NCBI GenBank assembly: GCA_040285855.1
Contig: JAUFOQ010000002.1
Coordinates: 3,534,001 to 3,598,000 of the forward strand
Length of the DNA stretch: 64,000 nucleotides
From: Eukaryota sp. GEM-RC1
Taxonomy: Eukaryota
Direction: 5' to 3'
In this document: piece after piece, positions 25,522 through 64,000 of the stretch
How positions within the stretch are numbered: position 1 is the first letter of the stretch
Layout: every line of letters starts with the position of its first letter
The notes under the pieces: generated by a model
The model's input: the letters and a program-made list of their open reading frames with translations, nothing else
Databases searched by the model: none
What the model was told of the DNA's origin: nothing
Made by a program: the position numbers and the translations under genes

Positions 25522-26427
25522 ATGAGAACTGTAACGCTCAACACTGGTAATGAAATGCCTGCTCTTGGCTTAGGTACTTGGCAACTTGAAAAGACAATGT
25601 ATCCGAATGTGTTCAAGCTGCAATCGAAATAGGATACCGGCACATTGACACTGCAAAAGCATACGGAAATGAAGAGGAGATTGGCGATACATTAAGATCT
25701 TGCGTGACCCAAGGATTTATCAACAGAACAAATGATGTATTCGTGACAACAAAGCTTTGGAACCAGGACCATGGACCTTACGAGACAATTCGAGATTCCT
25801 ATCGGGAATCTCTGCGTCGTTTAGGTCTCGACACTGTGGATCTATATCTTGTCCATTGGCCGGTGAAGTTCCGTCCAGATCCATCTACATCTTTTCCCAC
25901 CAATGCAGACGGTAAAGTGGATGTTGTGGAGAACGATATTACTGAAACATGGGAAGGAATGTCAAGGATCTTCAAAGATGGTATTGTTAAAGCTGTTGGA
26001 GTCTCAAACTACGGCCCACAGCAGATAAGTCAGTCATTGGAAGCAGTTAATGCTGTGGTTCCTGCTATGAATCAAATCGAATGTCATCCCTACTGCCAAC
26101 GCATTCCTGTACGAAGCTGGTGCAAGAGTAAGAACATAGGAATCACCGCTTACTCGCCTCTTGGAGGAGGGAAGAACTCGTTCCAGCTTGATGAATGACA
26201 GTATTATTATGGATATTGCTAAAGCCAGAGGTAAGACGACATCCCAGACTCTTATCGCTTGGGGTCTCAACAATGAAATGGTTTCCATACCCAAGTCATC
26301 CAATCCAAGCCGAATTCAGGAGAACTTCTATTCTGACTTTATTTTGTCACAAGAGGATCTGTCAAAAATGAGAGCTCTGGACAAGAATGAGTCGACTTTG
26401 AATGTAACCTGGTCTGAACTAAAGTAG
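25522..26427 (+). CDS. Aldo-keto reductase (two frameshifts)
   Basis: MPALGLGTWQ, then after a shift at about 25590 GYRHIDTAKAYGNE, VFVTTKLW, DLYLVHWP, AVGVSNY, NQIECHPY, AYSPLG, IPKSSNPSRIQEN. Confidence 0.9.
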
Positions 26428-30430: not shown

Positions 30431-30809
30431 GTTTTAGACCAAAATTTGAATGCACTTTTGTTCGGAAATCAAAGTAAACAACACACTGTAAAAATTAAAC
30501 TCCCATAAAGTTTTCAAATGATTTTGGAGTTTCTTTCCATTGAATTGATTTCAAATACAAAATTGTTTTGATTGGATTTCTTCTGTTTTTTTGGTCAAAT
30601 TGCATTAATAAAACAGACTCTCGTTCAACAGAGACTATAACATAAGTACAAAAACTAGAACAAATACTTGACCTTTGAACATCGTTCTGCATGAATCAAT
30701 AAGTACTGCGTCGACTGTCGTATTTGTGTATTGCTTGATAAGTACTGCTTCGATGTGAAGAACAGAAGTGCAATCTTCAAAAACATTTCCTTCCAATATC
30801 TCGATATGA

Positions 30810-33082
30810 ATGCAAAATCCAACACTTTCTGACTTTGAAAAGGTTCAAATCATTGGCAGGGGTAGCTATGGTGCTGTATATCTCGTCCGCGAAAAGTCTT
30901 CTTGCAAACTTCTTGTTCTTAAACAAGTCACCAACATTTCTTCTGATGAATGCAAACTTGCTGAGAATGAGGTGGATGTACTCAAAAACTTTCCCATCCA
31001 AATGTCATACAATATCATGGTTTTTCATTGACCACGACAACCAACTCAACATACTTATGGATTACGCTGATGGTGGGGATCTCCATGCTCGAATCCGTGG
31101 TCGTGACGGCCATCACTTCTCAGAAAACGACATTATGTCTTGGTTTGTCCAACTTCTTTCAGGTCTCTCCCACATCCACAACAACAACATCCTCCACAGA
31201 GATCTCAAAACCCAGAACATCTTTTTTAACAAAGTCAAACATCATCAAGATTGGTGACTTTGGTATAAGTAAACAACTAGGCACTAAGACTGACTTTGCC
31301 CGCACTTATGTTGGTACTCCCTACTATCTCTCTCCTGAAATGTGTGAAGATCTACCTTACAACACTAAATCTGACGTTTGGGCTCTTGGTTGTATACTCT
31401 ACGAACTCTGCTCACTTCGCCACGCCTTCACTGCTAAGTCTATTCCTGCTCTTGTCATGAGCATTCTACGTGGGATTTACGAACCAATTCCATCCATGTA
31501 CTCCTCTCAAATCAACGACCTAATCAAAATGATGCTAGAGGTCGACCCTGCACGTCGCCCATCAGTAAATGAGCTCACTCAAGTCCCCTACGTAAGAGAA
31601 TGGTCTGAGAAGTTTGTACAGAGAAGTAGAGGAATTCAACGGGGAGATCCTGTGGTAAAGGATCGTGTTGTCTTTGAAGATGGGAAGGGAATAGAGACGT
31701 GGAAGAAGGAGAAAGAGAATCAGTTGGGAGAGTTAGAGTTGATGTTGGCTGCTCATAAGAACGGTGAGGTGACTCCTGTGAATTTTAAAAATTTTAGTCC
31801 TGCTCAGCCGAAAGTGGAAAGTGTTAGAGTTGATTTGAGAAATCATGTCACACCACCAATCAAACCCCCAAAAAGTCTGCCTAGTTCTGGTCGATCGTTA
31901 TCACATCGGAGAGTTTCACCACGGAAGCAAGAAGAAATCCAGAAAGAATGTCGTGATAAGAGGAGGCATAAAGTTAGAACAAGTTCTGACATTAAGGTCC
32001 ACGAACAAAAATTTAAAAACAAACTGAAAAATGTCAAATCTCGAATCAGTCAGTTTAAAGATAATCAAGAATCTCCAATTGATCGGCCAATCGAAATCAA
32101 AGTAAAGGATCAAAAATCACGTGTTACTCCAAAAACTGATGATAAATCAAAAGAGATGGGGGACAGTTTTAGAGCTCAGACTGATGATCAAAAACAAGAG
32201 GCAAAATCAACCGAAGTATCTAAACCGAAACCAAAAAGATCTGGTTTCCGAGACTTTATTCAGAAGAAACGTCAGCAATTGCCTGATTCGGCTGAAGTTG
32301 GGATTGAAGTGCTTACTCCTGGAAAAACACCTTCAAAAACACCGTCCACGACTCCTTCTAATCAAGTTGACGTGCCCATAGTAATCTTAGCCAAATCACC
32401 ACCACGTCACCCCTTAAAGGAGGTAGAAGAAGAAAGGAAAGAAGAAGAGATCACAGAATCAGAAAAGGAAAGTGTTCATTCTTATACGGAAAGTGAATGT
32501 GATCGGTCACAATCACATTCCCCAAGAGGAATTTCTCCCACGCCAGAGGACTTCAATCGTTGTCAGATGATTTCAACTGATTACGGCATTGATGACGTTG
32601 ATTACAGTGATCACATGTTACTTCCAGTCAATTTTGATTCCTCCCCAGGCTATGTTCCGGGATCAACTCCTCTATTTCAAACAGAGAATTTCTTGTCTTC
32701 TCCTCCACAGATTTCTTCTCGATCTGATGGACATTTAGAAGATGAGTTTGAAGAAGCAGAGATGGAACAAGTCATTGAGACAATGAAAACTATGATGAAG
32801 GACGAATTTTATACTTGTAAAGAAATTGACATGGGACCTAAAAATCTTGAAAATTTGAAAAGTGGTGATGAGAATTCATCGTTACATTCTAAAATTGATG
32901 AGTTGAGGGAATTTTGCGAGAAACAATTAACTTTGGAGTCGTTCAAGTCCGTGTATAATATTTTGAAAAATAACGAAAAATTTACTGATGCAAATTGGGA
33001 GTTGTTGGATGAAATTTTAGGAGAAAAGGTGTTTTTGCTAGGTTGTATTCAGCGAATTTTAACACTTGAAAAGCAAACGTGA
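30810..33082 (+). CDS. NIMA-related (NEK) kinase, three homopolymer frameshifts
   Basis: IGRGSYGAV, MDYADGGDL, ILHRDLKTQNIF, KIGDFGISK, VGTPYYLSPE, KSDVWALGC. C-terminal NEK1-like helical tail (IDELREFCEKQL...). Confidence 0.9.
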
Positions 33083-34412: not shown

Positions 34413-34484
34413 TCGGTCATAGTATAGTGGTGAGTATCCCCGCCTGTCACGCGGGAGGCCGGGGTTCGATTCCCCGTGACCGAG
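34413..34484 (+). tRNA. tRNA-Asp (GTC)
   Basis: 72 nt. Acceptor stem TCGGTCA/TGACCGA, D-loop AGTGG, anticodon loop CTGTCAC, T-loop GGTTCGATTCC, downstream T-run (Pol III terminator). Confidence 0.97.
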
Positions 34485-36049: not shown

Positions 36050-36121
36050 CTCGGTCACGGGGAATCGAACCCCGGCCTCCCGCGTGACAGGCGGGGATAC
36101 TCACCACTATACTATGACCGA
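36050..36121 (-). tRNA. tRNA-Asp (GTC), identical second copy
   Basis: Exact reverse complement of 34413-34484. Confidence 0.97.
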
Positions 36122-43492: not shown

Positions 43493-45202
43493 TTATCGTC
43501 TTCGTTGACTCTCTAAGATTGCATCTAATTCATTAAACATCTCTACCCACAGCCCAAACTCCCATACTTCCTCTGGAACTCCTGGCTCCAAAAGAGGTAA
43601 GTAATCGTCACCCAAATGAGAAAACTTCGTAAATATCAACATTCTAAAGAACATACACCGCAGTACCAACACGCGCACCGTATCATCTTCTAAAAACTGC
43701 AACAACCACGGATGAACATCAGAATTACAACAAATCTGTCTACACACATCTCCAAGAAACGCGCTAATCTGACCATCAACCTCAGCAACTACAGTACTAG
43801 CTACGTGACTAACATCATTAAGAGCTAAGAAACCCAGAGCAGGACAATGTAAAAACAAAGTAAATAAAGATCCTTCTAATGGAATAAAAGTAGACAACGA
43901 AGGAGTGCTCTTTGGAGCTAATAATAAAAGTACATGTGAATTAAATGGAGAGTTAAGCTGAGAGAAAGCTCTACTACCACACGAGTCAATTACTAATACA
44001 ATATTTCTTCTTAAAAACGGGGTAAAGTCGTCCTTATAGAGAATATCAGGATCCTTGCCTGTTTCAGTAATCCTAACCTTATCATTACTCATCAATAATC
44101 CCTCCTCGCCAGTCACGTCATCAACAGTACCATCAGCTGATACATAGACAAGAAGAACATCAACGGAGGATAGCTCTGTGCAACTGCTGGCTAGTGATTG
44201 GAGCAATGACGTGACAGAGGGTCGGTATAACAGGTACTTGGCCGTGGAGAAAGAGAAGTCCTTTGTTAGAACGTCAACGTCTTCTACTGTTTCATGGGAA
44301 TGTGAGTGTTCTAGAGCTACTGTCATTCTGTACATGTCTAGAGTTAGTTCTGAGAATCGTGGTTGAGAAGTCTTGTTGCCGGCAATGATGATGTCTGATA
44401 CTTTGAGACCGATTCGTTGGACAAGAGGCTGTGGACCAAGGATTTTGGAGATACTCATTGGTACAACTGGGGTTGGCATTGGAGGAGAATCGTGGACGGA
44501 AGGAGAGAAGTTGTTAACAAGAGAAGGACGCCGGGAGACAGAGGAACGCCAGGGAGAAGAGTCAGAAATCCAGTGAGACGTGATCCGAGTATCAACAAGG
44601 GGAGGAACGGAAGAGAAGGATGATGACGGTTGGGTGTCAGTGATGGTAATGAAGTGGACGGCGTCGACGAACAGAGAGATTTCAGAGAGGAGGGAGGTCC
44701 ATTCAGTGATATCGGCAGGGTTGAATTGGTTTAGGTAGGAATGTACAAGGTCGTTGAGTTCCTGTTGCAGATTGACTAGGACTGGTTTGGGAGTGTTGCG
44801 TAGAATACAGGTCACAATGAAGCGAGCGTAGAAGCGTAGGGATTTAACAACAGGGAGTGGATCGTTGAGTTCTAAAACTGAACCAAAATACTGTCTTGAA
44901 CGGATTGCGTCATAAAATTGAGAGCATTGTTGCAGATAGATGAATTCAGATGTGCGTAGATAGAAATGATAATACAGTTGCGCAATTTTGCTGGCAATGT
45001 CTCCGATGAGGACTCTATCAAGACAACCAGAAGCCATGAGGGATTGACGTTCATTTTGTTGCAGTTTCCATAGTTTTCGTAAAACAGAGAAACATTTACA
45101 AAAATGACCAACCCAATGTTTACGCCCAAAGCGGGGAACATCACGTAAAGAAGCAAAAAGCTGTTGGCTGTGCTCCCAAAGTGCGACAAATTCCTTATGC
45201 AT
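43493..45202 (-). CDS. SCAI: SCAI (DUF3550) family protein
   Basis: LRDVPRFG...KLWKLQQ...IGDIASKIAQLYYHFYLRTSE...FYDAIRSRQYF, LRFYARFIV, KYLLYRPS, GSLFTLFL. Confidence 0.9.
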   Translation of the reverse strand: MHKEFVALWEHSQQLFASLRDVPRFGRKHWVGHFCKCFSVLRKLWKLQQNERQSLMASGCLDRVLIGDIASKIAQLYYHFYLRTSEFIYLQQCSQFYDAIRSRQYFGSVLELNDPLPVVKSLRFYARFIVTCILRNTPKPVLVNLQQELNDLVHSYLNQFNPADITEWTSLLSEISLFVDAVHFITITDTQPSSSFSSVPPLVDTRITSHWISDSSPWRSSVSRRPSLVNNFSPSVHDSPPMPTPVVPMSISKILGPQPLVQRIGLKVSDIIIAGNKTSQPRFSELTLDMYRMTVALEHSHSHETVEDVDVLTKDFSFSTAKYLLYRPSVTSLLQSLASSCTELSSVDVLLVYVSADGTVDDVTGEEGLLMSNDKVRITETGKDPDILYKDDFTPFLRRNIVLVIDSCGSRAFSQLNSPFNSHVLLLLAPKSTPSLSTFIPLEGSLFTLFLHCPALGFLALNDVSHVASTVVAEVDGQISAFLGDVCRQICCNSDVHPWLLQFLEDDTVRVLVLRCMFFRMLIFTKFSHLGDDYLPLLEPGVPEEVWEFGLWVEMFNELDAILESQRRR

Positions 45203-46523: not shown

Positions 46524-48322
46524 ATGACTACCACGACCTCCACGGTGACGTGTTCACTTGCCAAATTTTTTGACCCGCCAGCTCGGACAGTGATGAACAG
46601 GCAATTTCGGTACCTTCGAGACGTTGCTGTTCACTCAACTTTACTGGCCCGGGTGTTTGTGCTCCAGCACCCCCACTTAGCACGCTGGTTGACTGACCAG
46701 CGTTTCTGGTACCAGTGCTTTGGGTTCGTTGCTCACTCTGAGCCGAAAGTAAACCGCCCCTTTGAGAACGACAATGGAGTGTACACTGCACTGCATCTGT
46801 CATCAAGTCTTCCACCAGTATCCATTTGGCCGTTCCCTCCTCTTGGCCGACACAAACCGACACGCTGGTGTTACTCACAACTCTTGAGTGATAGGTCACG
46901 ACAGTTGTCTGAAGCTTTTCAACAACTGATGGCCGATGGTCCAGTCAGTTGGAAGCTGAACTTCTTCCGGACCGCTGCTGTATTCCTCGACTGCCCGACC
47001 CCTAAGGGATACGCTTCTGCTGTCGTACGTGGTGCTCAACCTGGAGCATCACTGCAGCAATGGTGGAATGCTCATCACCAGCAAACTCTGGCCACCTTTA
47101 ATCACTTAGTCGGGGATGTTGTCCTGTTCAATAATCTTTTGACAGAACGGTCTGTTGCCCTCAATGAAACGAACACCTCATTTCTGTTCACAGCTGGATT
47201 GAACCTGTTGTCTGCTCTCGAGGATGCTGCTCCAGATTGTATGCGCCGCCATGCTCTAGTTCCAATGGCCAGCTATGCTCCAGTGTTTGTATCATTCTCT
47301 CAGGAAGTGGAGAGACACTTCACAGAGTTCAACTTCTCAAGGACTCTCAAAAGTAACCCACTGAAAACGTTTAGAAAACGCCCCCGTTTCCAGACTTACA
47401 CCCTGGCCTCTGATGGTGTAAGTTTGAGGATAATTTTTCCACAAAGCCGAAAAAAACAAGGAACCGCCCTACCAAGGAGCAGTTTGAGTCAAGGAGGGCC
47501 AGTGGCTCCGAAGACTTCAAGGTTAAGTCTCGAAAGAGAAAGTGTAACCTACAGAAGAAAGTTGCTCCGTCACGATGACGTGCGAGAACAGCTGATTTCG
47601 AACCTCCTCCTGATGAAGATTGGTTATGGTGTGCAATTGATCCCAACCACAGTAACCTATGTGGTTGGTCTATTGGAACCAACACTGACTATTTATTGGA
47701 CTCTGGAATTACACTGGCACCAAAAGCCAAGGCTATCAATACTGTTATGTTTGGTGCTTTGAGCAACTCTACGTCGAACACCTATTCCGTTCAGAACATG
47801 TACATGTATCTGCTCGAGATATCGACCACTATTGTTGATCAAAATATGAGTAAGAACAGTCTAGAACGGTGTTTATTAAATGGGAACAGGCCCAACCTAC
47901 GGAGAAACAAGTTCGATTTCTTCATAAGAAAACAGAAACGATTTGATTTATTTGCTCAAAATTTGAAAAATATGGCACAAGGAAGCCAAATCAGAGTTTG
48001 GTTTGGAACAGGAGGTGCTAGCCCATCTAGGCAGCAAGTGAAGTCTCCAAGAAAGGGATTCCTTCAATATCTCAAAAGATTCTTTCCCGTTATTATGGGC
48101 GATGAATACTTCACTTCCGCAAAAACTAACTGCTGTAAAGTGAGGCATCAGTTGATATATCATGAAGTAGATGGAGTAAGAAGAGTGATTCACGCCATAT
48201 TTCGATGTCCAACATGTACTCAGGTTTGGTCAAGAGATATTTCCGCCTCCAGAAATCAACTTGAGATCGCTATAGAGGGTTACTTATTTGGAACTAGGCC
48301 TGAAGCTTTCCAACGTACTTAA
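46524..48322 (+). CDS. Fanzor1 (eukaryotic TnpB-like RNA-guided nuclease), one -1 frameshift near 47580-47590
   Basis: N-terminal TVTCSLAKF, LASDGVSL. The second frame has RuvC-I CAIDPNHSN (Asp 47639), VWFGTG...SPRKG, RuvC-II GDEYFTS (Glu 48104), Zn ligands TNCC...CPTC, and RuvC-III WSRDISASRN (Asp 48236). Confidence 0.88.
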
Positions 48323-48457
48323 TTATCTATGTATTGGCCGATGAAATTCAAGTTACCTTGAATGGAGGCCGTAATGTGGTGCTTCGGCAGAAAAGGGGTG
48401 TATATGAAGAAGCTTTCTTTGAAAGTGTAAAGTATGCATTTCTTGGAAAATCCACAG
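48323..48457 (+). ncRNA. Candidate Fanzor omegaRNA scaffold / element right end
   Basis: Directly 3' of the Fanzor stop. Perfect hairpin ATTCAAG-TTAC-CTTGAAT (48346-48363) inside GGCC/GGCC, a C(UUCG)G hairpin TGCTTCGGCA (48380-48389), and an end AAATCCACAG|TA that recurs at 51245-51255. Confidence 0.55.
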
Positions 48458-48724
48458 TAGTCTAGTTCAAGTTGTTTTTCCTCTCAATTCTCTTCTGCAA
48501 AATGTTCAAACTATTAGCTCAAAAAATGTGACATTGTATAAAAACTTGTATAAAAATCATAAAATATAATTCATGACCTTCTAGAAACATTAAATTTCTG
48601 TGCAATCAACTAGAGTATGTGTTTTTGACACTATAAAACTTCGTTATCTGAAAGGATTTGATATTATAGTGATCCCAATACTAAACTGACACAAACATCT
48701 ATTTATCTGTACAATATAGATGGA

Positions 48725-49813
48725 TTTTTTATCTGCTAAAGATTTGGTATCATCCTTGTCTCCTGAAATGTGGGAATCTTTGTTCCCTGCTCATTTGAAG
48801 GAGACTCCTTTAAAAAATATTTCATCTCTACCATCTGCTGTATGTAAGCTGCAAAATAAATTGACAAGGAGTTTGAACTCTTGGACTTTAATAATCGTAT
48901 TAGCTTGGCTAAAACTAATAGTCCCGAGTTCGCTGCTTTTTTAATCGATCTTTGTAATAGTGGACCTTCTGGATTTATTTCTCAAATTCCAAAGGTGTAT
49001 GGATTACATCTATCTGATGAAGCTTGGATGATCAATATGCGTCTTCGTTTGGCTATTTGGCCTGCAAATTTATTAAACTATTCAACGTGCTCTTGTGGAG
49101 CTAATGGTGTTTTTCGTCATTTAATTAATTGTCGTTATTTTATTCATCTCCGTGCAGTAATTCATGATGGTGTACGTGATTCTTGTTATTCCATGTTTAA
49201 AGCACATGGTTTTCACTCTAAAGTTGAACCAGTTTTGAATCATCTTTCAGAAAATGAATTTACTGATCAAAAAGAGGGGATCTACATACTCCGTGGCTTA
49301 AATCGAGTCAATCATTAATGGATTTTACTACAGTAGATGTATGTAACAAATCTTGTGTTAGTAGGATATTAGATTCTTCTTTTAATCCATTTACAGCAGC
49401 TGAAAAGCTCAAACACTCCAAGTATGACTCTCAAGTAGAAGAATTAAATAGAAACTCATATTCCAAATTTGTGTTTCAACCTTTTGCTGTTTCTCTTTTT
49501 GGATCTATTAGTCCTGCTGGTGATCAATTTTTCAAGGATTTCGAAGAATTGTGTAAAGAAAAGAAGCGTAAGTTTAGAATGGCTGAATGGAAAAACCGTA
49601 TAGTGTTTTCCATATATCGGAATATGCCTTTCTACTTCTCTAGATTAATTGAGAAATTGTACAAGTTTGGTGTGAAGGTTAATGTTGATAAACGTAATCT
49701 TTTACCGGGTGGTGATGAAGTCGTTTGGATTTAATCTTAGTATTATTTGTTTGTTTTTACAATTTCATAGTTTGTAGGAAGGTTACCTTATTGGGTGCCG
49801 AATAAACATCTTT
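48725..49813 (+). mobile_element. 5'-truncated RLE non-LTR retrotransposon
   Basis: CSC...HLINC, HDGVRD, DFTTVD, AEKLKHSKY, FQPFAVSLFG. 12-bp TSD AATATAGATGGA (48713-48724, 49814-49825). Nearly identical to 63648-64000. Confidence 0.9.
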
Positions 49814-52930: not shown

Positions 52931-53058
52931 CAATCTAATCCCAATTCTGATCCCATCGGTACAAGATTGAGTCTTCCTTTTATTCGACTTGATGATTCGA
53001 CTTCCATTGTTCCCCCCTGTTAAAAAAAAGTCGAGTTGATAGTGATTCCAGTCCTCCA

Positions 53059-54066
53059 ATGTCCAATCTCGAAATTTTAGCAAGAGTTGCCAAAAAAGCT
53101 CAAGTTAAAGCCAAATCACGGAGAGCTCCCTTGAATATTAATGGACAACGCCTGTCTAATAGAGTTTTTCCTGCTAAGAAATCTTGTCTCAAAGCTTTGA
53201 GGAAAATTAAGCCACATGACAACAACGAAAAACAGAATTTGATTGAATTCGGATGTGCTCAAGAACACCCTAATACTTATGCTCTTCCCAAGATTATGTC
53301 TATTGACCTGGAGACAATGCATCATGATGATGAAATTCCAACAGCTATTACGGAGGAATTAAGCAAGCTTCGAGGAAAGGAATCGCTGAAGTTAAAAAAG
53401 ATGAATTCAGAAGAGCATGATCGATGGATTGCTAGCCAAAAAGTTATGTCAGTTGCATAAATTTTTGGCCGTTTTAATGAAGAAAATTTTTACGAAGAAA
53501 AATCAATTATTATCTGTGTCAACCTTTGTGCAACAAACCTACCTTCTCCAATTGAATGCAGTTTATCCCCAAGAACTGAAATCTATGTTGTGCCCAATGA
53601 GTTGGTCCTGCTCCATATATTGATAGACGTGATTCAAGATTACCAGCCAAATTTCATTACTGGTCACAATATTATTGGATTTGACTTCAAAGTTTTGGAC
53701 AAGCGTTTCCAGTTTTATCAGTTCCCATGGCCTGTTAATTTCCAAGAATCCAACCTTAATCTTTTATCTAAAAACTGGCGTGAAGTTGTTAAAAATATAC
53801 ACGGATACTTGATACTTGATACTTTATTGTTCGCAAAACGTTTTCTCACAATGAAATTTGGAAACGATTTACCATCTCTTACACGAAATCTGATACACGA
53901 ATTTTGTCTCAAACTTAAAAAGGAAGAACTTGGAAATCTTTTGCCCATTGATTGTTGGTGTGAAAGTACACTGGTCTCTCTCTTAGTTGATTACAATTAT
54001 CAACACGCCAACTTAACTTTAAAACTTTGTATGCAATTCCAGAAAGAAAAATTTATTCTTCCAACT
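53059..54066 (+). CDS. DnaQ-like 3'-5' exonuclease domain of family-B DNA polymerase type (one in-frame TAA at 53458)
   Basis: ORFs 53059-53460 and 53590-54114 are the same frame, separated only by TAA. ExoI KIMSIDLET (Asp 53305, Glu 53311), NELVLL...QPNFITGHNIIGFD (ExoII), GYLILDTL, ExoIII-position YNYQH (His for Asp). No polymerase domain follows. Confidence 0.8.
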
Positions 54067-55506
54067 TATAGGATGGTAAAGTCTACTCTTCCACGAATTT
54101 TGGAAGCATCGTGATGTCTTTGAAAACATTGTGCAGCTAGCACCTCAATTTCACGAACTTCGTCGCCATACCCTACAATGCCTGCAATTGTTTTTAACAG
54201 CAAGATTTGAACGTGGAGAAGCGTTACCTGAAATCACTGAACAAATGATTACGTCTGTAATGACTCGAATAAATTATCTTTGTGCCCAATTTTATGGTCA
54301 GCCCTATAAACGACCCAGTAGTGCAATTGATGCGGACTTAGAACGATTTGTCATGGGAGAAGCACAATTCGACAGCAACTCAATTCACAAGGGCTATCGT
54401 ATTCAGTTAGAAGCAAATGAAGGCCATAACTTTCCAATGTTTCCTCCTCAAGGCTTCTCTAGACCACCAGAATACATTGCTCCAGTGCTCTTGTGTAACA
54501 TTAACAACAACTTGAAACTCCACTTTGGAAAACATATTAATCGTTTCATTAACGTATATTTTGGAAAAAAGCAGTCTGAAGAAGAAATTTCAAATTTAAT
54601 TAAAGAGCTGCCAAGAGAAGAACGACCTGATCGTCAACAAACTTTAACTTTGTATCGTTTTGCTCTTCGACAGATTAAAGACATTTTTACTGCTGAATCT
54701 GTCGATAACTTCAACTTGTTACTTTCAAATCAATTTTGCCTAGAAAAGTTTGAAGAAGATTGGAAGGATAAAGCAGGGGAAAAAGGAATGAGACCTCACG
54801 AAAAAGACTTTTTATACGATGCCTTTATTTACCCGTATGTCGTTGAAAAATTTGAAATTTTGCAGAGATCACCTCCTTTTAAATTAAGAGTGCTTCGACC
54901 ATTTCCTCAAATTTCGGAACTCGAAAAAAAGCCTCAATTATTCATGCCGGCAGCCATAACTATGAATCGTTATGTGAAGGAGAAAGAAGAAGCGGCTTTT
55001 CACTGGTTTCCCGCTGTAACCACGGTAATCCCAGGCTACTTTCCTATTGATACTAGAACTTTGTGGAATATCGTCAGGCAAAACAAGAAAACCAAGGATC
55101 TGAAGTTAATGAACAACCAGGCTGAGGTGACCAAGTTCAAACCAAAAGACCAACATGATTTTTGGAAAATGTTTGTAAACTTCGATTTAAAAGAATTCAA
55201 AAGAAAGATTATGTGTTCAACAACATTATCCACAGTGACGGTCAAAACTGTTCAATTGAGTTAGTTAGGCGTGACTTTGCTGGTGAAAAAAGAGGTAAGG
55301 ATGATTTACAAGGAAAGATTAAAGAAGTTTATTGTAAAGACTTGAGAGCAGAAAAATTTACAACAAAAAAAGTAGTTGTCTGTGACCCTGGAAAAAGGGA
55401 TCTACTTTATTTTGGTGGAAGAAATGAAGAACAAATTCAAGAAAACAAGTGTAATTGGCTGCGACTGACACAATGCAAATGGACTGTGGTAGCAAGAAAG
55501 CAATGA
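54067..55506 (+). pseudogene. Second Fanzor1-like protein, truncated after RuvC-I
   Basis: N-terminal YRMVKSTLPRI (in the exonuclease frame), HTLQCLQLFL...LPEI, NINNNLKLHF..HINRFIN, FP....IPGYFPIDT, YVFNNIIHSDGQNCSI, RuvC-I VVCDPGKRDLLY (Asp 55384), LRLTQ. Frameshifts at T4 (54098) and an A-run near 55205. No RuvC-II or RuvC-III downstream. Confidence 0.8.
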
Positions 55507-56173
55507 TAACTCCAAGTGATCGTGCTAGAGCTCCAAAGTTCAATATCAAGGATGAAAGAACGTGCATTAGACCAATCGTCATCATCAACGTCAAGAAATA
55601 CGTTCCTGACAAGGGTCGAGTCAGAGTCATCAGGTAGAGGGAAGTAAAGAGAATGCATACATGAATGATTTCCTGTTTGTGATCATACAGTGGGTGGTAA
55701 AACTGGTGGTAATGTCTTTGAACAATGTATTTAAGCTGACCTGAACTTAGTACAATACGGAACTCAGTAACTGGAGAAATGTATTTGAAAGGCTTTAGTT
55801 CAATAACAGGAACAGTTGTAGAGGTTTCTAGAGCATCACAGCACTCATCTGAGGACTTAAGCAGACAAAGAGCTGATTCAAGATTGTGAACTTTCAAAGA
55901 GCCATAGAGCCACATTGCATCAGTGGCAGCTGTTCCATTCAACTTTACAAAAGTAGATGGTCCTGTCTTGGAAAACAGGAAGAAGATCGCTCAAATCATA
56001 GACTGGAGAATTGGAGTCTTGAGGGATAGTTTGAGGTTCTTCTGTACACAGGAGTATTAAGTAGGAGGTTGTGAGATCAGAATGGAATCTGCAAAAAATT
56101 GTTGAACATCAGAAAAAACGGCACAAAAGAAGTTGGAAAACATAAGAAACACGATTAAATGAGTAAAAATCAT
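55470..56173 (-). CDS. CDC123: CDC123/D123-like ATP-grasp protein, frameshifted; limits approximate
   Basis: FVKLNGTAATDAMW..GSLKV...LLKSSD, EFRIV...IVQRH, and in the adjacent frame VFLDV...FILDIELW match CDC123 motifs. Confidence 0.65.
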
Positions 56174-63200: not shown

Positions 63201-63290
63201 ACTAAATTAGTTTAATATAAAAAAACGGATTTATGTGCGGAGAAAGATAGGTACAAATAAATAAACACTATTAAAACAAATAATTATCAA

Positions 63291-64000
63291 ATGTTATCTT
63301 TAGATGTGAGCAAACATGTTTCCTTTGCTATGCTTCAGGTCTGTTTTTCCGGGAAAATTAATCATTTTTTACGTTCATTAGACTATTCCCTTACTGAAAC
63401 ATTTGCCAAGAAATTTAATTCTATTAGAACAAATTTTCTCTCTAACTTGGCTGAAATTGATGAGTCTAACATTCCATTTCATGCTTTTTATTCTTCTGAA
63501 TTCGCAGGAGTAGGTTTCACCCATGCAAAAATCATTAGAAAATCTGCTCTTTTAGGAGGTGTTAAGAATTTTATGTTTGAATTTTTGAAACGGTTTCCCT
63601 TGGATGGAATCAATCTGTTGAATTCCAGTAATTGCCGTTGGATTCAATCTGCTAAAGATTTGTTATCATCTTTGTCTCCTGAAATGTGGGAATCTTTGTT
63701 CCCTGCTCATTTGAAGGAGACTCCTTTAAAAATATTTCATCTCTACCATCTGCTGTATGTAAGCTGCAAAATAAATTGACAAGGAGTTTGAACTCTTGGA
63801 CTTTAATAATCGTATTAGCTTGGCTAAAACTAATAGTCCCGAGTTCGCTGCTTTTTTAATCGATCTTTGTAATAGTAGACCTTCTGGATTTATTTCTCAA
63901 ATTCCAAAGGTGTGTGGATTACATCTATCTGATGAAGCTTGGATGATCAATATGCGTCTTCGTTTGGCTATTTGGCCTGCAAATTTATTAAACTATTCAA
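63291..64000 (+). mobile_element. RLE non-LTR retrotransposon ORF fragment (post-RT region), runs off the window
   Basis: KINHFLRS...FAGVGF thumb-like region. 63648-64000 is nearly identical to 48731-49086. Confidence 0.85.

Follow-up and report, generated by a model that had tools for sequence, protein, structure and literature searches.

The stretch analysed here, referred to as the window, comprises 64,000 nucleotides of the genome of Eukaryota sp. GEM-RC1 (contig JAUFOQ010000002.1) and carries a gene related to the Fanzor nucleases at positions 46524 to 48322 of the plus strand. Fanzors are, to our knowledge, the only known RNA-guided DNA nucleases of eukaryotes, and they are under development as compact genome editors. 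We regard the stretch with good confidence as a copy of the Fanzor1 family which, as assembled, does not encode a full protein owing to a frame break at a run of seven A (A7) and a copy-specific TGA, and which is likely decaying, as part of a multi-copy family that was amplified recently.

Two overlapping open reading frames (ORFs) make up the gene. The first one, in frame 0, extends from an ATG at 46524 to 47762, and the second one, which lies in frame 2, runs without a stop from 47579 to a TAA at 48320-48322. The Fanzor1-like N-terminal half (46524..47456, frame 0) consists of a helical REC-like part and a WED-like region ending in S-D-G and the strand VSLRIIFPQ. The S-D-G (47409..47417) is aligned to the TDG motif of the Fanzor1-type profile, SpuFz1, PpFz1 and GtFz1 and thus is the counterpart of the TDG motif of the Fanzor1 WED domain, as described in the available text of PMC10711439; motif and adjoining beta strand are both in place, with S instead of T as first residue. 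The 29 bases GTAAGT...AAAG that follow (47418..47446) read VSLRIIFPQ in frame 0 and are modelled as an intron in five of six paralogues. The A7 run lies at 47450..47456 and is overlapped by a linker rich in Lys and Arg (47447..47575, frame 2; 16 of 43 residues), which matches the family profile with an E-value of 8.7e-12 and is a candidate nuclear localisation signal that may serve nuclear import. It ends at the in-frame TGA (47576..47578), beyond which the RuvC nuclease and zinc-ribbon (TNB) half (47579..48322) follows in frame 2. The public annotation at this locus is restricted to a fragment of 116 amino acids (P0013), letter-for-letter identical to the end of the frame-2 ORF.

Both frames match the profile of the family (A1), frame 0 over 46524..47456 with an E-value of 1.5e-132 and profile positions 1-315, and the overlap of the frame-0 and frame-2 matches is confined to 47432-47468. 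According to the alignment of both frames with the family, the coding frame is frame 0 until ...TLASDGVSLRIIFPQSRKK and frame 2 from PKKTRNRPTKEQFESRRASG... on. The true frame change accordingly lies within 47432-47468, most likely at the A7 run, which is the sole run of at least seven A or T in the gene. With eight A instead of seven, frame 0 would pass into frame 2 as one continuous frame and go on as PQSRKKTRNRPTKEQFE, gapless against TQKERKTYNRPNKAEFE of the relative P0004. The second lesion is the TGA, where the paralogue models read APSRRRARTAD, with Arg in all six annotated paralogues that cover the site. An alternative genetic code for TGA was considered and rejected, as TGA also terminates seven of 19 further long ORFs of the window and is therefore an ordinary stop here. 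Beyond the TGA, the copy features five private amino-acid changes, and one more is shared with two paralogues. The ORF, which would have to be continuous in a functional gene, is thus interrupted twice, by the frame change and by the TGA.

The preliminary description had proposed a near-intact gene of about 600 amino acids after restoration of one base near 47585. The length held, with 599 codons after the addition of one base, but the position did not, since the frame breaks about 130 bases further upstream. A frame hop near 47585 merely bypasses the TGA and misreads 43 codons (47457-47585) of the wrong frame, which is open by chance until 47762. One base at this place fails as a repair because the correct frame has already been entered upstream and contains the TGA. 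Likewise, the term near-intact has to be given up: there are two lesions and not one, and the copy-specific nonsense codon persists after the base insertion. The copy is therefore likely a pseudogene that remains as a dead relic within a multi-copy family, rather than an enzyme close to intact.

The catalytic motifs were found by translation where they had been described before, including the RuvC-I motif CAIDPNHSN in the second frame as well as DEYFTS, T-N-C-C, CPTC and RDISASRN. All three catalytic residues of the D-E-D triad are in place. These are, in the numbering of the piece 47579-48319, the RuvC-I Asp D21 (47639-47641), the alternative Glu E176 of GDEYFTS (48104-48106) and the RuvC-III Asp D220 of SRDISASRN (48236-48238). 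The stretch VWFGTGG (47996-48016, frame 2) has no canonical RuvC-II Glu and aligns with a Glu-less 'FGd' strand of the relatives, and the alternative Glu stands six residues before the zinc finger. G143, E176, C210 and D220 do not vary in any of the 67 aligned sequences, while R219, A223 and N226 are conserved to at least 90%, so that the Asp of the RuvC-III RDxxA motif is present in its usual context. The relatives aligned with the window piece show DPG (few DPN), the Glu-less 'FGd' strand, DExxTSxxCxxC, a second CxxC and RDxNAxxN, and a Fanzor fingerprint of this pattern was described in the available text of PMC10711439.

Two motifs depart from this fingerprint. At RuvC-I, the family reads DPN instead of the DPG given in the accessible part of PMC10711439. 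The preliminary description regarded DPN as divergent, which does not hold: SpuFz1 itself reads IDPNKRD in a printed alignment, its D383 and N385 are placed at RuvC-I, with N385 at the metal site, in the available text of the SpuFz1 study (PMC10432273), and DPN also occurs in three of 56 relatives of a further alignment (A3). A strict DPG rule excludes a bona fide Fanzor1, because SpuFz1 carries DPN. The T-N-C-C half-site (48125-48136, within T-N-C-C-K-V-R-H) was rightly called divergent, as the family has Thr in place of the first Cys of the usual CxxC knuckle. The second knuckle, CPTC (48206-48217, putative ligands C210 and C213), is present, and in the first one the column of the first Cys holds T183, followed by N-C-C-K-V-R-H; E176 and the column of the second Cys keep their register despite the Thr. 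The ligands of the first knuckle are likely C185 or C186 plus H190 (putative ligands C185/C186/H190, 48131-48148). The same T-N-C-C occurs in the distant relative P0097, and 14 of 26 family sequences contain the pattern DE-x8-C[CH]KxxH-x16-20-CxxC-x6-D, with the rest being fragments or mutated copies. Judged from the alignments, the family has a genuinely variant zinc knuckle in T-N-C-C. As this family shows, genuine Fanzor1s escape the published DPG/CxxC fingerprint.

The assignment to Fanzor1 is based on profile comparisons. The Pfam domain PF07282 (Cas12f1-like TNB) was detected in nine of nine family members (best E-value 2.3e-6), and in the window piece with 26.1 bits, just below the cut-off of 26.3 bits. 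A search with the family profile against 1.84 billion representative sequences (exhaustive HMMER) recovered 309 proteins with E<=1e-3. Matches beyond the family of the host lineage, the skoliomonads, are unnamed proteins of 520-910 amino acids, and 37 of 38 that were scanned contain PF07282. From 32 of these relatives, which span 560-910 amino acids and include zero skoliomonad sequences, a relatives-only profile (A4) was built. Profile A1 of the family and A4 were aligned by hhalign with a probability of 99.94% and an E-value of 1.1e-36 over 551 columns, with the N-terminal half included. Compared with the PDB, A4 reached the structures of SpuFz1 (4.9e-79), PpFz1 (7.5e-56) and GtFz1 (6.1e-55), Fanzor2 with 2.3e-11 over the C-terminus only and ISDra2 TnpB with 2e-4, and it matched the window frame 47579-48319 with 125.5 bits, far above chance. 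The comparison of hidden Markov models that had been recommended hence places Fanzor1 structures far ahead of Fanzor2 and TnpB. The ranking among Fanzor1, Fanzor2 and TnpB is based on these gradients of E-values and on fold ranks, in place of a labelled phylogeny. The link is transitive and runs via the profile of the relatives: the family profile alone reached no Fanzor1 chains in the PDB, with a weak match to LaTranC (0.034), and the TnpB models of NCBIfam gave 11-17 bits with the family at cut-offs of 100-425. Taken at the level of sequence comparison, the gene is a homologue of Fanzor1 over its whole length.

Structure prediction agrees with this assignment. The lack of a RuvC fold would have contradicted the preliminary description, but such a fold was recovered. 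An AlphaFold2 (AF2) model of 47579-48319 (247 residues, deeper alignment) was obtained with a predicted local distance difference test score (pLDDT) of 88.8 and a predicted template modelling score (pTM) of 0.80. The model begins with three strands, followed by inserted helices, the WFG strand and the DE strand, and then by the zinc-ribbon hairpin and the RuvC-III helix; this gives the window sequence a RuvC/TNB fold. In a Foldseek search of the PDB with the window piece, SpuFz1 came first (7.1e-10, query template modelling score, TMq, 0.61-0.62), followed by PpFz (2.6e-7), Cas12f, GtFz (3.9e-5), Fanzor2 (8.7e-5, TMq 0.40) and TnpB (6e-3); among the matches listed within ranks 1-50, all are Fanzor, Cas12 or TnpB chains. 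Against predicted viral structures, 'transposases' of giant viruses were the best matches, with Tetraselmis virus 1 at 3.6e-13 and a TMq of 0.71. This agrees with the neighbours in a protein language model, which are Nucleocytoviricota clusters of 620-800 amino acids with PF26935 and PF07282 (score 0.98).

Among the characterised systems, SpuFz1 of Spizellomyces punctatus (PDB 8GKH, 9CEU-9CEZ) is the closest counterpart. It shares with the present gene a length of about 600 amino acids, the order of helical REC, WED with TDG, RuvC with inserted helices, zinc ribbon and RuvC-III, the DPN at RuvC-I, the replacement of the canonical RuvC-II Glu by an alternative one in DExxTS and the RD..A..N at RuvC-III, and its structure matches the window piece best. 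In addition, SpuFz1 belongs to a multi-copy family with partial copies, according to the available text of its description (PMC10432273). The differences comprise an identity of 18-20% over the aligned RuvC half, the family knuckle T-N-C-C-x3-H instead of CxxC, and the nonsense codon and frame break of the window copy. The giant-virus 'transposases' resembling Fanzor (Tetraselmis virus 1 A0A2P0VNN9 and those of the Klosneuvirus group) are the top predicted-structure matches, but their identity is 16-20% and the window copy lies in the chromosome of a cellular protist beside host genes. The RuvC fold, the zinc ribbon and the RuvC-III motif are also found in Fanzor2 (Acanthamoeba polyphaga mimivirus, PDB 9B0L), which moreover shares the alternative Glu, and in TnpB of IS607/IS605 (ISDra2, PDB 8H1J/8EXA). 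However, these matches are far weaker and limited to the C-terminus (2.3e-11 and 2e-4 versus 4.9e-79 for SpuFz1; TMq 0.40-0.44), and both groups are shorter proteins without the N-terminal half of the Fanzor1 type.

The host genomes of the family belong to related protists. GEM-RC1, TZLM1-RC and TZLM3-RCL are skoliomonad metamonads, and the GEM-RC1 genome is 48% repetitive, as stated in the accessible part of the genome report (PMC11316075). The C-terminal frame of the window copy has 98% identity with P0001, a 'hypothetical protein' of 589 amino acids from Eukaryota sp. GEM-RC1; for proteins of Eukaryota sp. TZLM1-RC and TZLM3-RCL, the identity is 44-51%. The eight members of the 90% cluster of P0001 are six GEM-RC1 models (506-590 amino acids), P0013 (116 amino acids) and one unrelated sequence of 56 amino acids. 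There are at least six near-identical GEM-RC1 paralogues with 98-99% protein identity, and those of 589 amino acids differ pairwise at just 4-10 of 589 residues, which suggests a recent amplification. The multi-copy status is thereby seen at the protein level, with a single copy of the family within the 64-kb window. Larger families exist in the two related genomes, with clusters of up to 28 members in TZLM1-RC. Besides, a second, divergent Fanzor subfamily of the GEM-RC1 genome is represented by P0034 (539 amino acids), and the P0075 cluster with nine members is a more distant Fanzor-like family of TZLM3-RCL. As these exist beside the main family, skoliomonads carry several Fanzor lineages. 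A comparison of the family alignment with metagenome and viral contigs revealed no relative, and an exact 32-base pattern of the window had no match in metagenomes.

Several observations weigh against the interpretation as a decaying Fanzor1 copy and have to be considered together with the other explanations of the locus. The regular expression of the published fingerprint (DPG...E-x6-CxxC...CxxC-x4-8-D) matched none of 26 family sequences, a first AF2 model of the full length was poor (pLDDT 57.3, with 75-90 over about residues 30-240), and terminal repeats, a target-site duplication or a guide RNA could not be defined from the single copy in the window. Nevertheless, Foldseek ranked Fanzor1 first with this poor model as well. 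The unmatched DPG/CxxC fingerprint would also fit an independent acquisition of a TnpB-like or Fanzor2-like gene with a superficial resemblance to Fanzor1, as would the fact that sequence searches with the family alone reach just the C-terminal zinc ribbon of TnpB-like proteins. Such an origin is highly improbable, given that the homology to Fanzor1-type proteins covers the full length including the N-terminal REC/WED half, that lengths of 589-637 amino acids fit Fanzor1, that Fanzor1 structures outrank Fanzor2, Cas12f and TnpB in both fold searches and that SpuFz1 has DPN, too. The assignment to Fanzor1 made in the preliminary description is thus upheld by full-length profile-profile homology, a RuvC/TNB fold with SpuFz1 as best match and the invariance of E176 and D220. 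A further explanation concerns the 29 bases at 47418-47446, which could be a real short spliceosomal intron, so that the paralogues would encode a protein of 589 amino acids and the window copy would be broken by the TGA alone. This is improbable, even though the GTAAGT donor is canonical and the acceptor is AG, five of six public gene models use it, RNA-seq hints entered the annotation pipeline, as indicated in the accessible part of PMC11316075, and a gain of introns by Fanzor genes is known (PMC10530073). The models of P0001, P0010, P0011, P0014 and P0015 read SDG|PKKTR and skip 47418-47446 to pass from frame 0 to frame 2. However, the skipped bases encode VSLRIIFPQ in frame, gapless against the strand after TDG in relatives, SpuFz1 (TDGASVSVYLK), PpFz1 and GtFz1 and present in the profile-profile alignment as well, and splicing would remove this strand. 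In alignment A1, it is aligned to SLRFTF, SVRITF, SAHFTF or SITFLF in six of eight sequences from outside GEM-RC1, and to KQVMFTF in P0034, the divergent paralogue of the same genome, which is read straight through. Moreover, P0012 reads SDGVTEKTRNR, which implies a run of six A (A6) and a donor four bases downstream, and stays in frame only with this different, 25-nt version. Because skipping these bases would cost the protein its conserved strand behind the TDG counterpart, and because the version of P0012 shifts to fit the frame, unlike a real intron, the 29-nt 'intron' is probably a patch by the gene finder over a one-base difference in the length of the A run. Tiny 'introns' in these gene models and homopolymer frame breaks in this assembly should accordingly not be taken at face value.

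The second question is whether the break at the A run is a real deletion. It is possible, though on balance rather doubtful, that it is a homopolymer assembly error; skoliomonads would then harbour a Fanzor1 lineage that has been amplified recently and is still active, with compact nucleases of 599 amino acids and an unusual T-N-C-C/His knuckle, and the window copy would be one C-to-T change away from it. In this case, the paralogues would be intact genes and a single substitution would separate the window copy from an intact state. In favour of an artefact, the break is a difference in homopolymer length, a typical error of Nanopore reads, and the length varies among the assembled copies, with A7 here and A6 implied in P0012. 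The accessible part of the genome report (PMC11316075) gives Nanopore R9.4 reads with Illumina correction for the GEM-RC1 assembly and 29 fragmented BUSCOs in the gene predictions versus 9 in the transcriptome, whereas the other two skoliomonad genomes are without such an excess (7 versus 16 and 14 versus 14). The window itself holds a comparable case, a NEK-type kinase (30742-33079, plus strand) that changes frame exactly at a run of six T (31222-31227). One frame carries its Pfam Pkinase positions 67-133 and the next frame the positions 130-263, which leaves no space for an intron. The annotated kinase P0195 (670 amino acids) starts in the wrong frame and is without the HRDLK catalytic loop, and its closest relatives in the two other genomes, of 772 and 785 amino acids, are about 100 amino acids longer. 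The kinase break is due either to an assembly error at the homopolymer or to very recent pseudogenisation, and because of it the A7 break may be an artefact common to all copies. A real defect is favoured by the argument that a base common to all copies should be mended by short-read correction, as well as by independent damage elsewhere, namely a shifted N-terminus in P0010 and Asn for Asp beside the catalytic Glu in P0011. Fanzor genes are dispensable for transposition, as established for TnpB, so that dead copies can still be amplified, which likewise favours a real defect. That the assembly is wrong at both lesions and that an intact Fanzor1 gene of 599 amino acids occupies the locus is quite improbable. 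The read type, the unusually fragmented GEM-RC1 predictions, the homopolymer-sited break in a conserved kinase of the same window and the A7 versus A6 difference speak for it, but the TGA arose by substitution rather than by an indel and is private to this copy (none of six paralogues). In addition, mis-polishing with reads of other copies would pull the sequence towards the family consensus and not away from it, and the five further private amino-acid changes are as expected in a decaying copy. Very improbable, finally, is a function of A7 as a site of programmed -1 ribosomal frameshifting or transcriptional slippage that sets the level of full-length Fanzor, comparable to some bacterial insertion sequences. 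In frame 0, the run reads A AAA AAA, a valid slippery heptamer, and a slip would yield PQSRKKTRNRPTKEQFE, gapless against relatives; the 104 bases downstream fold somewhat better than shuffled sequences (z -2.14, with 6 of 200 shuffles folding equally well), and the break is common to all assembled copies. Yet relatives from the two other genomes and P0034 have one continuous frame, frame 0 stays open well past the site and the fold signal is weak. We know of no such mechanism for Fanzor or TnpB, with no search aimed at it having been made. The reading as a decaying copy that is broken as assembled is preferred.

The product of an intact family member would associate with a guide RNA from a transcript of the transposon's 3' end, as SpuFz1 does according to the available text of PMC10432273. 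It would recognise a short target-adjacent motif (TAM) and cut matching DNA via the RuvC site D21/E176/D220, and the gene would travel as a passenger of a eukaryotic DNA transposon. In the window copy, the 3' flank (48323..48730, plus strand) is the expected place of the omegaRNA scaffold and comprises at most 408 bases before an unrelated repeat begins at 48731. Its GC content is about 0.39 to roughly 48450 and 0.25-0.30 thereafter. The fold of this flank is unexceptional (z -1.43), an Rfam scan of the window returned two tRNAs elsewhere and nothing else, and around the gene short and weak inverted repeats were found, none of them convincing.

What is new here is a host lineage of Fanzor1, and its member of this known family is mildly variant. 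The family extends Fanzor1 to free-living soda-lake metamonads, in which the proteins are annotated merely as hypothetical. Within the library searched, no paper was found that names Fanzor together with metamonads, and the supplements of Fanzor papers may list metamonad matches. Enzyme discovery would better start from uninterrupted relatives, such as those of the P0004 cluster (18 members) and the P0002 cluster (17 members), than from the window copy.

A second and different Fanzor1-like relic lies in the same window at 54080-55503 (plus strand) and consists of two ORFs in different frames. ORF 54080-55261 matches the Fanzor1-type profile with an E-value of 3.7e-15 at positions 38-320, and ORF 55159-55503 with 3.9e-5 at positions 319-390, where VVVCDPGKRD represents a canonical DPG RuvC-I; a C-terminal nuclease half was not found downstream. 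Directly upstream of this relic, ORF 53461-54111 (plus strand) contains a family-B DNA polymerase exonuclease domain (PF03104, 1.4e-14) and shares its frame with ORF 52996-53457, with one stop between them. This ORF may be what is left of a mobile element with a polymerase gene.

The minus-strand neighbour of the Fanzor gene (43493-45202) is a homologue of SCAI (Pfam 9.4e-111), so that the copy sits among eukaryotic host genes. On the other side, the repeat 48731-49085 corresponds to 63647-64000 with 98.6% identity over 355 bases and is unrelated to the Fanzor gene. The copy at 63 kb reaches further in the 5' direction within ORF 63261-63776, and the one beside the Fanzor gene looks 5'-truncated, as is often the case in retroelement insertions. 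The ORFs at 48860-49731 had no Pfam match. A partial D123 (CDC123-like) ORF at 55361-55990 (minus strand) matches positions 84-203 of a 300-position Pfam profile with 2.2e-10. Neither of its ends turned up in this frame, and removal of a candidate GT..AG interval of 55 bases does not bring the frame back. An aldo-keto reductase ORF (25590-26420, plus strand; Pfam 2.9e-38, positions 19-196 of 291) meets a stop at about 26195 and, judged by eye, seems to resume in another frame (..LMNDSIIMDIAKARGKT..), with neither space for an intron nor a homopolymer at the break. The two tRNA genes, at 34413-34484 (plus strand) and 36050-36121 (minus strand), have identical Rfam scores and lie on opposite strands about 1.6 kb apart.

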